Below are positions 4,075-45,892 of a DNA stretch of 64,000 bases, piece after piece. The stretch's first letter is position 1, and each line of letters starts with the position of its first letter. Source of the stretch: Escherichia phage T4_ev151; the sequence record LR597660. One strand, 5' to 3'. The notes beneath the pieces were generated by a model. That model did not search any database. It was not told the origin of the DNA and saw only the letters and a list, made by a program, of their open reading frames with translations. The position numbers and the translations under genes were made by a program.

Positions 4075-4615
4075 ATAAAAAATCCAAACTAGGAGAATCG
4101 TCTACAACACTTTTCTTTTCAGCCCCCGGTGTTCTATAGGTTGATTCTTCGTAATGCGTCATTTTATCGTAGATGTCTTGAATAAAAGTTTCATCTACTA
4201 ACGCAACCATATCGTCGTCACGGCTGTCATAGACATTGTGAACGAAGTAACTATATTTCTTTGCAACTTCCTTACGTTCTTTTTTAATACGTTGGACGAA
4301 TGCATTAAAACAAGCTTGAGTTATATATGCATGTGGGTTTTTATATTTCGTTTCATCAAAATTATGAAGCCCCTTAATAGAAGCTTCTATACCATCTGCA
4401 ATCATTTCTTGTTTCCAAGACTGGGTGTATCCTGAAAAGTTGAAACGTTTAGATAAGCCTTCTGCAATAAGCATAATGGCTAATCCGATAGTATCATTCT
4501 GACGAACTACTTTATTTGGGTCTTTATTATTTGCTAATTCTGTTTTCCAATCAATAATAGCTTGTAAAAGCTCTTTATTGTTTACGTAATTATATTTAGG
4601 CTTAGTTTCTGACAT
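4058..4615 (-). CDS. 55: Late sigma factor gp55
   Basis: Begins [25 protein letters not shown] from ATG at 4615 (track start 4621 is GTG); 185 aa as T4 gp55; AGAGGTGA SD. Confidence 0.95.
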
Positions 4616-4693
4616 TTTCACCTCTTAGCTCAATTCATAGATCTATTATATCATAATATTTGAAGATCTATCTTAAAGCATAGAGGATATCAG

Positions 4694-4963
4694 TTATCTA
4701 AGTAAACAGTATGCTTGGAATACTTTTTCCATCATCTTTTTAAATTCATGAATATCTATATAATGACTAGTTAAATCAGCATGATATAAAAAGTCTAAAA
4801 ACTTTTCATGTGTATTAACATATTCACTTTCATTTAATTCAGAAACATGGCTTTCCCAATATCCAACACCAGTCTTATTTGGGAAAAATGAAATTTTCAT
4901 GTATTGGTCAACATAGAAAATGCCATAATTTTCAATAGTAATAGAAATATTAATAAATTTCAT
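4694..4963 (-). CDS. Hypothetical protein
   Basis: 89-aa ORF, ATG start, ATGA overlap with upstream gene. Confidence 0.5.
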   Translation of the reverse strand: MKFINISITIENYGIFYVDQYMKISFFPNKTGVGYWESHVSELNESEYVNTHEKFLDFLYHADLTSHYIDIHEFKKMMEKVFQAYCLLR

Positions 4964-5175
4964 ACATTCATCAACTTAGCCGCTTCAAGAGCTGCATCTA
5001 GTGAATCAAATTGGTCAACATATTCAATCAATTCGCCATAATTGGCATATAACCACCATTGGCTAAATTCATACTCAAGGATGAATCCGTTTCCTTCAAT
5101 TTGAGTTAAACCAATGCCATTTGTATTTACTTCATATCCAGCAAGACGTAAATCGTTAATAAGAGCTTCGTTCAT
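4960..5175 (-). CDS. Hypothetical protein
   Basis: 71-aa ORF, ATG start. Confidence 0.5.
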   Translation of the reverse strand: MNEALINDLRLAGYEVNTNGIGLTQIEGNGFILEYEFSQWWLYANYGELIEYVDQFDSLDAALEAAKLMNV

Positions 5176-41314: not shown

Positions 41315-41905
41315 ATGCTCTTTACATTTTTTGATCCGATTGAATATGCGGCCAAAACGGTGAATAAAAACGCGCCGACTATTCCTATGACAGATATTTT
41401 TAGAAACTATAAAGACTATTTTAAACGCGCTCTTGCGGGATACCGCTTACGTACTTATTATATCAAAGGTTCACCACGTCCGGAAGAATTAGCAAATACT
41501 ATATATGGAAATCCACAGCTGTATTGGGTTTTATTGATGTGTAATGATAATTATGATCCATATTATGGATGGATTACTTCACAAGAAGCTGCTTATCAAG
41601 CATCTATACAAAAATACAAAAATGTGGGTGGAGACCAAATAGTATATCATGTGAATGAGAACGGTGAAAAATTTTATAATTTAATATCATACGATGATAA
41701 TCCATATGTTTGGTATGATAAAGGCGATAAAGCTAGAAAATATCCTCAATATGAAGGAGCACTTGCTGCGGTCGATACGTATGAAGCTGCTGTTCTTGAA
41801 AATGAAAAACTTCGTCAAATAAAAATAATAGCAAAATCAGACATCAATTCATTTATGAACGACCTTATACGTATAATGGAGAAATCTTATGGAAATGATA
41901 AGTAA
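41315..41905 (+). CDS. 53: Baseplate wedge protein gp53
   Basis: 196 aa, size and synteny as T4 gp53. Confidence 0.9.
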   Translation: MLFTFFDPIEYAAKTVNKNAPTIPMTDIFRNYKDYFKRALAGYRLRTYYIKGSPRPEELANTIYGNPQLYWVLLMCNDNYDPYYGWITSQEAAYQASIQKYKNVGGDQIVYHVNENGEKFYNLISYDDNPYVWYDKGDKARKYPQYEGALAAVDTYEAAVLENEKLRQIKIIAKSDINSFMNDLIRIMEKSYGNDK

Positions 41906-43619
41906 TAACCTTAATTGGTTTGTTGGTGTTGTTGAAGATAGAATGGACCCATTAAAATTAGGTCGTGTTCGCGTTCGTGTGGTTGGTCTGCATCCACCAC
42001 AAAGAGCACAAGGTGATGTAATGGGTATTCCAACTGAAAAATTACCATGGATGTCAGTTATTCAACCTATAACTTCTGCAGCAATGTCAGGAATTGGAGG
42101 TTCTGTTACAGGGCCAGTAGAAGGAACTAGAGTTTATGGTCATTTTTTAGACAAATGGAAAACTAACGGAATTGTCCTTGGCACGTATGGTGGAATAGTT
42201 CGCGAAAAACCTAATAGACTTGAAGGATTTTCTGACCCAACTGGGCAATATCCTAGACGTTTAGGAAATGATACTAACGTATTAAACCAAGGCGGAGAAG
42301 TAGGATATGATTCCTCTTCTAACGTTATTCAAGATAGTAACTTAGACACTGCAATAAATCCCGATGATAGACCACTATCAGAGATTCCAACCGATGATAA
42401 TCCAAATATGTCAATGGCTGAAATGCTTCGCCGTGATGAAGGATTAAGACTAAAAGTTTATTGGGATACCGAAGGATATCCGACAATTGGTATTGGTCAT
42501 CTTATCATGAAACAGCCAGTTCGTGATATGGCTCAAATTAATAAAGTTTTATCAAAACAAGTTGGTCGTGAAATTACTGGAAACCCAGGTTCTATTACAA
42601 TGGAAGAGGCGACGACTTTATTTGAGCGTGATTTGGCTGATATGCAACGGGACATTAAATCACATTCTAAAGTAGGACCAGTCTGGCAAGCTGTCAACCG
42701 TTCTCGTCAAATGGCGTTAGAAAATATGGCATTTCAAATGGGTGTTGGTGGTGTAGCTAAATTTAACACAATGTTAACTGCTATGTTAGCCGGAGATTGG
42801 GAAAAAGCATATAAAGCCGGTCGTGATTCATTGTGGTATCAACAAACAAAAGGCCGTGCATCCCGTGTTACCATGATTATTCTTACCGGAAATTTGGAAT
42901 CATATGGTATTGAAGTTAAAACACCAGCTAGGTCTTTGTCGGCAATGGCTGCTACTGTGGCGAAGTCTTCTGATCCAGCTGACCCTCCTATTCCAAATGA
43001 CTCGAGAATTTTATTCAAAGAACCAGTTTCTTCATATAAAGGTGAGTATCCTTATGTGCATACGATGGAAACTGAAAGTGGGCATATCCAAGAATTTGAT
43101 GATACTCCTGGGCAAGAACGATATAGATTAGTTCATCCAACTGGAACTTATGAAGAAGTATCACCATCAGGAAGAAGAACAAGAAAAACTGTTGATAATT
43201 TGTATGATATAACCAACGCTGATGGTAATTTTTTGGTAGCCGGTGATAAAAAGACTAACGTCGGTGGATCAGAAATTTATTACAACATGGATAATCGTCT
43301 TCACCAGATAGATGGAAGTAATACAATATTTGTACGTGGCGATGAAACTAAGACAGTTGAAGGTAATGGAACTATCTTAGTTAAAGGTAATGTTACTATT
43401 ATAGTTGAAGGTAATGCTGACATTACAGTTAAAGGAGATGCTACCACTTTAGTTGAAGGAAATCAAACCAATACAGTAAATGGAAATCTTTCTTGGAAAG
43501 TTGCCGGGACAGTTGATTGGGACGTTGGTGGTGATTGGACAGAAAAAATGGCATCTATGAGTTCTATTTCATCTGGTCAATACACAATTGATGGTAGCCG
43601 TATAGACGTAGGTTTATAA
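41889..43619 (+). CDS. 5: Baseplate hub / tail lysozyme gp5
   Basis: 576 aa; central T4-lysozyme-like domain (MAEMLRRDEGLRLKVYWDTEGYPTIGIGHL) and C-terminal VxGxxxxx beta-helix repeats. Confidence 0.95.
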   Translation: MEMISNNLNWFVGVVEDRMDPLKLGRVRVRVVGLHPPQRAQGDVMGIPTEKLPWMSVIQPITSAAMSGIGGSVTGPVEGTRVYGHFLDKWKTNGIVLGTYGGIVREKPNRLEGFSDPTGQYPRRLGNDTNVLNQGGEVGYDSSSNVIQDSNLDTAINPDDRPLSEIPTDDNPNMSMAEMLRRDEGLRLKVYWDTEGYPTIGIGHLIMKQPVRDMAQINKVLSKQVGREITGNPGSITMEEATTLFERDLADMQRDIKSHSKVGPVWQAVNRSRQMALENMAFQMGVGGVAKFNTMLTAMLAGDWEKAYKAGRDSLWYQQTKGRASRVTMIILTGNLESYGIEVKTPARSLSAMAATVAKSSDPADPPIPNDSRILFKEPVSSYKGEYPYVHTMETESGHIQEFDDTPGQERYRLVHPTGTYEEVSPSGRRTRKTVDNLYDITNADGNFLVAGDKKTNVGGSEIYYNMDNRLHQIDGSNTIFVRGDETKTVEGNGTILVKGNVTIIVEGNADITVKGDATTLVEGNQTNTVNGNLSWKVAGTVDWDVGGDWTEKMASMSSISSGQYTIDGSRIDVGL

Positions 43620-43622
43620 ATA
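43615..43622 (+). promoter_or_regulatory. Late promoter (TATAAATA) overlapping gene 5 stop
   Basis: Exact TATAAATA 17 nt upstream of the Seg-like gene ATG. Confidence 0.55.
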
Positions 43623-43638
43623 ATTCCAGAGGTGAATT

Positions 43639-44505
43639 ATGAAAAAATCTAACACAGTTCAATTTAGATACATATATAAAACAACCGTTACTAATCCGAA
43701 AGGATTAGTACGGGTTTATATTGGTAAACATGAATCTAGATATTTTGATTTAGAAAATGATAAGTATAGAGGTTCCGGTGATTATATTAAAAAGATACGT
43801 AATAAACCTGGTTATAAAATAGATTTTGAAATAATTGAATTTGTTTCTACTTATGAAATTCTCAATTCAAGAGAAAGATATTGGATTTCGAAATATAAAT
43901 CATCTGATATTCTATGTACCAATATAAAATCCGGCGGTGATGGTTTTTCATCCGAAGATTTGAAGAGAATGTGGTCTAATCCTGAATATAGGAAAGCTCA
44001 ATTGAAGGCATTAGCTAAATCAACGTCAACTAAAGAATTTTCAGAGAAAATATCTAAAATAAACAAAGAAAGATGCGCATCGCCAGAATATCGAAAGAAA
44101 ATGAGTAATGCGATGAAAACTGCTTTTGAAAATGATCCAACATTAAAAATTCGTATTTCTAATACCGTTAAATCTTTATGGAAATCCGATGAATATAGAA
44201 ACAAATTAATCAATCATCCAGGAAAAATAGAAGGAACGAAACAATCATGGAATGATCCTTTGATAAGAAAATCGAGATTAGATGCTAGAAATAAAAAACT
44301 AAGATCAGTTGAACCTTGGATTAGTATAGAAAAAGTCAAAAAACTTTGGGAGGATTTGGGAAAACCACATCCACAGAAATACAAATGGTTTAGAGAAAAA
44401 GCAATTGAACACGACCTCCCGGATGTAAGTTATAACGCAATTTTAAAAGCGTTGAAAAAATGTGATTATAAATTTACATCATTAGAGAATTCAACAATTG
44501 GCTAA
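43639..44505 (+). CDS. GIY-YIG homing endonuclease (Seg-like) with NUMOD-type repeats
   Basis: 288 aa; FRYIYKTTV...VRVYIGKH core; repeats WSNPEYRK, ASPEYRKK, WKSDEYRN. Confidence 0.75.
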   Translation: MKKSNTVQFRYIYKTTVTNPKGLVRVYIGKHESRYFDLENDKYRGSGDYIKKIRNKPGYKIDFEIIEFVSTYEILNSRERYWISKYKSSDILCTNIKSGGDGFSSEDLKRMWSNPEYRKAQLKALAKSTSTKEFSEKISKINKERCASPEYRKKMSNAMKTAFENDPTLKIRISNTVKSLWKSDEYRNKLINHPGKIEGTKQSWNDPLIRKSRLDARNKKLRSVEPWISIEKVKKLWEDLGKPHPQKYKWFREKAIEHDLPDVSYNAILKALKKCDYKFTSLENSTIG

Positions 44506-44539
44506 TATACTTCCAATGAGCGCTGATTTAGGAGAATCC

Positions 44540-45034
44540 ATGGAAGGTTCTTCTATCGACGTCACCTTTACCGCTCAATTAGAAACAGGTGAAACGTTAG
44601 TATCTATAAATATAACTAGTTACGAAGAAACTCCTGGGGTTTTAGTAGAAGAAAATCGCTTATATGGAACATATGAATCTGTATTTGGTTTCGGAAATGA
44701 CGCGTTGAAATATCGTTTAGGCGATGAATTTAAAACTGCTGCTTCATGGGAAGAACTTCCTACTGATTCTGATACTCAGTTGTATTTGTGGAAAGCTCCT
44801 CAAAATCTCCAGAAGACATTCACTTACGAAGTAACATTAATATATGACTACCAAGAACAAAGTGAATCTGGAGGTTCTGGCAGTAATTCTAGGTCATCTT
44901 CTGATACTACTGAACCAACGGATCCTCCTGCTCCAGTAAGAAAAACTCTCGTTAAAAATTATACTAAAACTATAGTTGGAAATTGGAGTCGTTGGGCTAA
45001 TAAGCTGAGAGAATATGTCTATGCAAGACCATAA
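44540..45034 (+). CDS. Hypothetical acidic Ser/Thr-rich protein
   Basis: ATG 44540 with GGAG SD (track TTG 44498). Confidence 0.5.
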   Translation: MEGSSIDVTFTAQLETGETLVSINITSYEETPGVLVEENRLYGTYESVFGFGNDALKYRLGDEFKTAASWEELPTDSDTQLYLWKAPQNLQKTFTYEVTLIYDYQEQSESGGSGSNSRSSSDTTEPTDPPAPVRKTLVKNYTKTIVGNWSRWANKLREYVYARP

Positions 45035-45611
45035 ATATTTTTATTTGTATTCAATAACTAATAAAACAACAGGAAAAATTTATGTAGGCGTCCACAAAAC
45101 TTCAAATTTGGATGATGGGTATATGGGTTCTGGCGTTGCCATTAAAAATGCCATTAAAAAATATGGCATAGATAATTTTTATAAGCATATTATAAAATTC
45201 TTTGAATCTGAAAAAGCTATGTATGACGCAGAGGCAGAAATAGTCACAGAGGAATTTGTTAAATCTAAGAAAACTTATAATATGAAACTAGGCGGTATCG
45301 GTGGCTTCCCAAAACATAACACAGCGGGTGCTAAAAATGGATTTTACGGTAAATCTCATTCGCGTGAAACTAGATTGAAAATTAGCATTAAATCGTCTAG
45401 AAAAAGAGGGCCTAGAGGGCCTAGAGGTAAAACTCTGAAGATGTGTGGCGCCAATAACCCAAGGTATGGCAAAATAGCCCCTAATGCTAAATCTGTTATT
45501 ATCAACGGCGTTTTATATAAAAGTATTAAAATCGCAGCTAAAGCTCTTAATATAAATTATAGTACCTTAAAGGGGCGAGTTAAAGCGGGGTATTATAAAT
45601 GTCAGGATTGA
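45015..45611 (+). CDS. GIY-YIG homing endonuclease (Seg-like)
   Basis: 198 aa; [21 protein letters not shown] and NGFYGKSHS motifs. Confidence 0.75.
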
Positions 45612-45892
45612 GTTATGATAAGTGTGTTACTGCTGGCCATGAAGCGTGGCCTCCAACAGTTGTGAATGCTACGCAAAGTAAAGTATTCACTGGAGGAATT
45701 GCTGTTCTAGTAGCAGGCGATCCAATTACAGAACATACAGAAATTAAAAAGCCATATGAAACACATGGCGGAGTGACACAACCTAGAACTTCTAAGGTAT
45801 ATGTCACTGGAAAGAAAGCTGTTCAAATGGCTGATCCAATATCATGCGGTGATACTGTGGCTCAGGCATCATCTAAAGTATTCATTAAATAG
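45599..45892 (+). CDS. 5.4: gp5.4 PAAR-like spike tip protein
   Basis: 97 aa, Gly/Val-rich beta repeats with conserved His/Cys; position before gene 6. Confidence 0.8.

Follow-up and report, generated by a model that had tools for sequence, protein, structure and literature searches.

Escherichia phage T4_ev151 carries two genes for GIY-YIG endonucleases of the Seg type between its baseplate hub gene (gene 5) and the gene for the PAAR spike-tip protein, one on each side of gene 5.1. We examined this interval in a window of 64,000 nucleotides (nt), one strand of sequence record LR597660, from what is a Tequatrovirus (a T4/T6-like phage). A first-pass annotation of this DNA had described two Seg-like GIY-YIG open reading frames (ORFs), 288 and 198 amino acids (aa) long, on either side of an acidic ORF, and their coordinates proved to be as claimed. 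The order on the plus strand is gene 53, gene 5, the 288-aa ORF (ORF288), gp5.1, segC, gp5.4 and gene 6; the minus strand across the interval holds just short ORFs, none with database support. We propose, with a probability of about 0.8, that the locus contains two independent free-standing GIY-YIG homing endonuclease genes at two junctions beside the resident gene 5.1, where they probably spread by intronless homing. This proposal is built on the identities and catalytic motifs of the genes, purifying selection, presence/absence polymorphism, exact junctions and a scar allele.

By sequence comparison, ORF288 is a free-standing Seg-like GIY-YIG homing endonuclease gene of the T6ncORF142 type. 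It is 99.9-100% identical in nucleotide sequence to the T6 gene annotated as "seg-like hypothetical protein, T6ncORF142", which likewise lies between genes 5 and 5.1, and genes of this type are also present in ACG-C40, PYPS2T, fPS-2 and vB_SsoM_113. The context differs from that in T6, which is without segC, while here ORF288 lies beside segC. The product is annotated as "putative Seg-like homing endonuclease" in vB_SsoM_113 and as a homing endonuclease in some other phages. The Seg-like GIY-YIG assignment was correct, and the gene is already annotated in T6 and vB_SsoM_113. The literature searched contained no name, assay or target for it.

The ORF288 protein consists of an N-terminal catalytic domain (approximately residues 9-100) followed by a basic C-terminal half, predicted to be helical, in which a loose (S/N/D)-P-E-Y-R-x-K motif recurs about five times, and its isoelectric point (pI) is 9.77. 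It matches the PHROG 314 "homing endonuclease" profile with an E value of 1.2e-25 over a region shared with the SegC match, and its first 96 aa can be aligned directly with SegC (E 2e-4, 30% identity). When the 13 members of its family were combined into a profile, this matched the catalytic domain of I-TevI (1LN0) at 1.7e-6, with residues 5-93 covering that domain of about 90 residues end to end. Invariant in all 13 members are Y11-I12-Y13, Y27-I28-G29, Y43/G45-S46-G47, K56, E79 and N95. E79 and N95 align with I-TevI Glu75 and Asn90, and the GIY tyrosine Y13 and the YIG motif are also kept at the I-TevI positions. Comparison with the F2 orthologue, which is 86% identical, gave a ratio of nonsynonymous to synonymous substitution (dN/dS) of 0.096 at a dS of ~0.95, showing that purifying selection on the protein is strong. 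It belongs to a small family; beyond three close clusters, even the nearest proteins reach no more than ~36% identity.

The last ~50 aa of ORF288 resemble the C-terminus of the Seg-like protein of Dhakavirus VR26, and NUMOD3 is present in two distant family members; a Pfam search of the C-terminal half recognised no NUMOD or helix-turn-helix module. Searches of the PDB by phmmer with the single ORF288 or SegC sequence returned nothing relevant. TIGR01453 scored 19.7 bits on ORF288, under its cut-off of 56, and other Pfam and NCBIfam matches, for example GerD, were rejected as sub-threshold or spurious. Relative to I-TevI, ORF288 lies outside any intron, lacks both a zinc finger and a clear equivalent of R27, and differs in its linker and DNA-binding region; both genes have a late-promoter-type box shortly upstream. 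A parallel in genetic organisation is offered by T4 SegF, SegG and SegE, which are likewise free-standing GIY-YIG genes between conserved genes and patchy among T-even phages, with polymorphism of the neighbouring gene in the carrier and promoters of downstream genes inside the endonuclease ORF (PMC2988022). ORF288 is at most ~30% identical to these proteins.

The 198-aa ORF is, by sequence, T4 SegC. It was rightly called a Seg-like GIY-YIG gene but is not a new one: 196 of its 198 residues are identical to SegC of T4T, its position between 5.1 and 5.4 is that in T4, and at the nucleotide level it is 99.6-100% identical to T4 records and to ~30 other phages. SegC scores over the Pfam cut-offs for SegE_GIY-YIG (27.4 bits; cut-off 25) and NUMOD3 (28.3; 20.4), and the I-TevI DNA-binding domain falls slightly under its cut-off. 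The two differences from T4T are at codon 2 (45018-45020; Ser2 here, Pro2 in T4T) and at codon 20 (45072-45074; Gly20 here, Glu20 in T4T), the latter in the GIY-YIG loop. Gly20 is also found in 13 records with a 100% nucleotide-identical segC (559-nt query). The reading frame runs through without interruption here; in this stretch the reference sequence of T4 (AF158101/NC_000866) is 1 nt shorter and is annotated as segC plus "5.3". SegC is listed among the free-standing GIY-YIG endonucleases with demonstrated activity (PMC2988022, Table 1), and it cuts its site and promotes recombination (PMC2988022, PMC3016281). It has also been described as a promoter-less cassette with a 20-bp overlap with the upstream ORF (PMC2988022), and the same overlap with gene 5.1 is present here. 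A 7-bp palindrome within segC (45148-45169) is absent from the homologue in the Citrobacter phage Moon and was dismissed as probably due to chance.

The acidic ORF between them is the conserved resident gene 5.1, which lies outside both mobile elements. As described, its product is acidic and rich in Ser and Thr (pI 4.46; 26 Asp and Glu against 15 Lys and Arg; 37 Ser and Thr among 178 residues). It belongs to the gene 5/5.1/5.4 cell-puncturing module and was present in all 38 of the diverse T4-like loci that we recovered through gp5.4 (71-100% identity). The first-pass annotation had placed both endonucleases in one structural-gene gap; gp5.1 splits this gap into two junctions, 5/5.1 and 5.1/5.4. 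The right-hand resident, the PAAR gene, carries the gp5.4 annotation in both T4 and T6. An AlphaFold2 (AF2) model of gp5.1 was confident, with a mean predicted local distance difference test (pLDDT) score of 85.5, and predicts an immunoglobulin/cadherin-like beta-sandwich followed by a C-terminal strand and helix; residues ~120-145 form a disordered acidic Ser/Gly/Pro linker. A 2026 paper called the function of gp5.1 unclear, modelled the protein docked on the gp5.4 PAAR tip and noted that particles without gp5.4 are also without gp5.1 (PMC13611949).

The edges of the ORF288 element could be placed exactly by comparison with T4, in which 13 nt of the gene 5 end (ATCGAGGATTGAC) stand in place of 902 nt here (43595-44496). 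At the left edge the end of gene 5 is recoded: it reads GGT AGC CGT ATA GAC GTA GGT TTA TAA here and GGA TCG AGG ATT GAC ATT GGC TAA in T4, with the C-terminus changed from IDIG to IDVGL. This patch, the last 25 nt of gene 5, holds 13 of the 74 differences between the gene 5 sequences of the window and T4, and it is also found in T6, F2, the sequence L044 and the phage ESh36. The recoded end may give the carrier genome immunity to its own nuclease. At the right edge the 902-nt block stops right before the original ATTGGCTAA, which comprises the stop codon and the gp5.1 start, and ORF288 therefore stops at the ancestral gene 5 stop codon. Its boundaries are identical in T6, F2 and L044, and they recur, in a different backbone, in a metagenomic orthologue with 78% identity. 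The empty-site sequences of both junctions are absent from the whole window, even with three mismatches allowed.

Loss of the element has also left a trace. In ESh36 (L004 2440-2580), 215Ecol030PP, LF73P1 and LF73P3, only the final 32 nt of ORF288 remain, directly behind the rewritten gene 5 end, and this scar is the exact product of a deletion between the two 8-bp TTATAAAT direct repeats of the cassette. From its sequence, such an allele, without the homing gene but with the rewritten flank, may resist cleavage; it represents the "lost" stage of a homing cycle. A second candidate scar, in L020 and L024 (~4440-4495), where gene 5 ends in DIGL and a stop followed by TTATAAAT, was rejected as there is no detectable ORF288 remnant. 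This DIGL-type gene 5 end with GGTTTATAAATA resembles the ORF288 cassette edge, and no homing gene is present there; the rewritten gene 5 end of the cassette may stem from a lineage of this kind.

The edges of segC were located by alignment with the empty T6 site AGGCCATAAATGTCAGG. The segC-specific insert is bounded by CATAAAT and TATAAAT, and 10 of the 17 differences between the gp5.1 genes of the window and T6 fall within the last 46 nt, next to segC. A general rule that TATAAAT repeats flank Seg genes was considered and rejected: it fits the ORF288 scar and, loosely, segC, but fails for the insertions in VR26 and Moon.

A consensus late-promoter box overlapping the gene 5 stop codon (43617-43619) had been noted, and the exact match TATAAATA is indeed there, also overlapping the left TTATAAAT repeat. 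The box is missing from the empty T4-type junction and is invariant in three diverged cassette orthologues. The right TTATAAAT repeat is held in GATTATAAATTTACA at the 3' end of ORF288, within which lies the near-consensus box TATAAATT. Together with the Shine-Dalgarno (SD) sequence of ORF288, these conserved elements are consistent with a late promoter borne by the cassette and an embedded promoter for gp5.1, and we infer that the TATAAATA boxes may serve as promoters. A second exact TATAAATA occurs at 44605-44612 on the plus strand, within the gp5.1 coding region. A sigma-70 promoter scan gave matches at chance level. The predicted RNA structures at the starts of ORF288, gp5.1 and segC were like those of shuffled sequences (z = -0.49, -0.08 and -0.84, respectively), giving no sign that the ribosome-binding sites are sequestered.

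These features can be combined into a scheme of intronless homing. When two phages infect the same cell, the nuclease, expressed late, would cut the allele of a relative without the gene, and recombination-dependent repair would then copy that gene, with its flanks, from the carrier, which would itself be protected by having its target split or rewritten. In the case of ORF288, the 902 nt with the recoded gene 5 terminus and TATAAATA would replace the 13 nt of the gene 5 end. A genome with both genes, such as this one, is the expected product of a cross between a T4-type and a T6-type phage. By analogy with SegC, we infer that ORF288 is likely an active nuclease that spreads by the same intronless homing. 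Its target may be at or near the gene 5/5.1 junction, in or near GGATCGAGGATTGACATTGGCTAATAT of the empty allele; we give this location about even odds because Seg enzymes can cut far from their own gene.

Several observations weigh against this proposal. No Pfam GIY-YIG model (PF01541, PF19835) matched ORF288 at E ≤ 0.1. Its family has no conserved Arg between YIG and Glu that would correspond to I-TevI R27; two lysines, K30 and K56, are conserved. AF2 modelling of the full-length protein gave a poor result (pLDDT 63; predicted TM score 0.33), and a Foldseek search of the PDB with this model yielded noise only; its N-terminal domain, at moderate confidence, nevertheless has the expected beta-beta-alpha-beta-alpha order, a point in favour of the assignment, and the remainder is helical at low confidence. 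Among free-standing Seg enzymes, cleavage hundreds of bp away from the gene is common (PMC2988022), and the recoded patch may therefore mark just the edge of the cassette without being the target. Over the 900 nt of upstream gene 5, no further site co-segregates with ORF288, as a co-conversion haplotype would. The TATAAATA octamer occurs 11 times in the window against 12.3 expected and so shows no enrichment; because its count is at chance, the weight of the box comes from its position and conservation and not from statistics. The occurrence of ORF288 in just ~6% of sequenced relatives is low for efficient drive. Finally, the nuclease role, cleavage and homing of ORF288 are predictions.

The distribution of the two genes was surveyed in ~520 phage records containing the region. 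Full-length ORF288 is present in 32 of them (~6%) and segC in 36 (~7%). The uninterrupted T4-type gene 5/5.1 junction was found in 486 of 517 records, 478 of them at ≥99% identity. A T6-type 5.1/5.4 junction query was matched over ≥80% of its length by 467 records, a figure that includes some segC carriers in which the two flanks were joined into one match. Both genes occur together in four records, where ~2 would be expected under independent assortment. Among the 38 T4-like loci, gp5.1 is the sole gene in the gap in 35, ORF288 is present in one and a SegC homologue in two. These last are the Citrobacter phages CF1 (L019) and Moon (L025), in which a 206-aa homologue with 48.5% identity (4381-5001) occupies the same 5.1/5.4 junction, with the same M-x-M-Q-D-x-K start overlapping the gp5.1 end. 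In the Dhakavirus phages VR26 and CLB_P2 (L016 5291-5968), a different 225-aa Seg-like gene, annotated "segA", lies between gp5.4 and gene 6. Across the subfamily, then, Seg-like genes occupy no fewer than three junctions within ~2 kb. A further Seg-like gene of 216 aa was seen on the minus strand of a metagenomic T4-like contig (L017 1008-1658), between a homologue of gene 4 (head completion) and the next gene upstream.

T4-like genomes are generally full of homing endonuclease genes. In T4 there are 15 and in T6 there are 11 (PMC2993671). The earlier description of the interval as a recurrent homing hotspot is partly supported by the variable presence of the genes, the scar and the Moon/CF1 and VR26 insertions, in a survey that covered this interval. 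It may instead be that there was no repeated invasion: each junction would have been invaded once long ago, followed by descent, homing among relatives and sporadic precise loss, and the "empty" sites would in part be secondary deletions. An old occupancy fits the SegC homologue at the identical junction in Moon and CF1 and the ORF288 orthologues of 78-86% identity with the same boundaries in differing backbones, and the ESh36-type scar proves that precise loss between TTATAAAT repeats occurs. In addition, the empty 5.1/5.4 site of T6 (L002 4113-4146) encodes a mini-ORF, MCMRGHKCQD and a stop, in which the opening and closing residues of SegC are fused at an ATAAAT repeat. This sequence is compatible with a past precise loss of segC, yet its ATG and stop are largely forced by the codons of gp5.1 and gp5.4. 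Against a single invasion, the T4-type 5/5.1 junction is identical in Tequatrovirus and another genus, and it looks primary because it bears the SD and TTG start of gp5.1. Moreover, the third, unrelated Seg-like gene at the 5.4/6 junction in Dhakavirus represents at least one further independent insertion. We consider a single old invasion of each junction a serious contender, but on the whole a doubtful one.

A less probable alternative, to which we give rather little credence, is that ORF288 no longer is a homing nuclease but a domesticated or decaying Seg-like protein with another role, for example in DNA binding, regulation, or the promotion of recombination or amplification as recently reported for T6 SegB. 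The sub-threshold Pfam scores, the missing R27 equivalent, the 4-5 extra residues between GIY and YIG, the ~6% frequency and the existence of loss alleles would all be accommodated by this idea, and a T6 Seg enzyme can act beyond homing (PMC13096335). On the other hand, all remaining catalytic positions are invariant, and SegC, which is reported to be active (PMC2988022), likewise has no Arg in the I-TevI R27 stretch. The dN/dS of 0.096 indicates a protein under selection, and a patchy distribution, exact boundaries and a rewritten flank together are what homing endonuclease genes classically show. The first-pass annotation had itself allowed that both ORFs might be syntenic T4 orthologues without catalytic residues; on examination the locus is not of this kind, and the GIY-YIG motifs are intact in both.

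That the ORFs are chance open frames, or the locus an assembly chimera of T4-like and T6-like reads, might be suggested by the AT-rich sequence and by the presence of both genes in just 4 of ~520 records, but this is effectively refuted by the strong family matches of both ORFs (including that of ORF288 to PHROG 314), by purifying selection as measured by dN/dS, and by the recurrence of the whole 2.5-kb layout at 97.4-99.3% identity in four independent GenBank phages (Manna, LH2, SP21535 and CJY920), whose identical arrangement rules out an assembly artefact.

Table 1. Features of the gene 5 to gene 5.4 interval, in window coordinates.
Feature	Position	Strand	Remarks
Gene 5 (baseplate hub/lysozyme)	41889-43619	+	
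Recoded gene 5 3' end (cassette left edge)	43595-43619	+	By comparison with T4
Left TTATAAAT direct repeat, 8 bp	43614-43621	+	
TATAAATA, T4 late-promoter consensus box (predicted)	43615-43622	+	Exact match; 17 nt before ORF288 ATG
Shine-Dalgarno-like GAGG	43629-43632	+	6 nt before ORF288 ATG; kept in F2 and L044
ORF288 (Seg-like, 288 aa)	43639-44505	+	
Perfect 9-bp hairpin, GAAA loop (TACTAATCC GAAA GGATTAGTA)	43689-43710	.	Within ORF288
GATTATAAATTTACA, 15 nt in ORF288 3' end	44464-44478	+	Invariant in three orthologues; ~25 nt before gp5.1 start
Right TTATAAAT direct repeat, 8 bp	44466-44473	+	
TATAAATT, near-consensus late-promoter box (predicted)	44467-44474	+	Inside GATTATAAATTTACA
gp5.1 (178 aa from TTG start)	44498-45034	+	
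segC (198 aa)	45015-45611	+	20-nt overlap with gp5.1 end, 13-nt with gp5.4 start
Left direct repeat of segC insert, CATAAAT	45030-45036	+	Alignment with empty T6 site AGGCCATAAATGTCAGG
Right direct repeat of segC insert, TATAAAT	45594-45600	+	Overlaps gp5.4 ATG (45599-45601)
gp5.4 (PAAR spike-tip protein, 97 aa; right-hand resident gene)	45599-45892	+	Pfam PAAR_motif 9.4e-10

The start of gp5.1 bears on the 5/5.1 junction as a target. Conservation and modelling indicate that, here and in T4, translation probably begins at the TTG at 44498 (M-A-N-I-L-P...) and not at the ATG annotated in T4, which corresponds to 44540. This TTG is preferred because the N-terminus M-A-x-I-L-P is conserved in the gp5.1 family, has ATG as its first codon in Moon and L044, and forms part of a 14-aa N-terminal extension that AF2 confidently models as a beta-strand. 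The N-terminal peptide expected from this start is MANILPMSADLGESMEGSSIDVTF... In metagenomes, gene callers often place the start 6 codons further upstream, which gives a protein of 184 aa. In T4-type phages the SD for the TTG (GAGGA) is within the last codons of gene 5; this embedded signal may explain both the invariance of the gene 5 end across genera and its suitability as a nuclease target.

The hairpin inside ORF288 codes for some of the 4-5 residues inserted between GIY and YIG. The three wobble-wobble pairs of its stem have all undergone compensatory change in F2 (T-A to A-T once and T-A to C-G twice) with the peptide unchanged, and L044 keeps eight of the nine pairs. Given the peptide and the codon usage of the phage, the probability of a chance stem is 0.024 for nine Watson-Crick pairs and 0.18 for at least eight. 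The compensatory synonymous changes point to selection for pairing. A simple terminator scan marked the hairpin as terminator-like on the minus strand, and an Rfam search of the whole interval, hairpin included, found no match. It is conceivable, although we think it unlikely, that the ORF288 element is more than a bare nuclease gene, namely a self-contained mobile module with its own late promoter, an immunity-giving gene 5 terminus, an internal promoter by which the displaced gene 5.1 would regain its expression and a selected hairpin, which would throttle nuclease expression or halt antisense early transcription towards oriE. If so, ORF288 and segC would bracket gp5.1 such that either nuclease would carry gp5.1 alleles between phages.

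Of the two genes, segC is already known and ORF288 is of the same type, annotated but uncharacterised; to find both in one genome is rare but expected. The arrangement is an ordinary though well-preserved example of the spread of homing genes among T-even phages, which leaves the current understanding of homing endonucleases unchanged, and its practical value is modest. Its useful outputs are a target prediction, a scar allele, a conserved hairpin and a gp5.1 start. ORF288 receives a concrete cut-site prediction, the very highly conserved gene 5/5.1 junction, for which the T4-type empty, T6-type occupied and ESh36-type scar alleles provide natural controls, and the annotation gains a suggested corrected start for gp5.1. 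The stages of a homing cycle, namely empty, occupied, and lost but possibly resistant, are all visible in one genus. The cell-puncturing gene region is mosaic among the T-even phages used in therapy and in studies of defence systems, and homing is a plausible contributor to this mosaicism.

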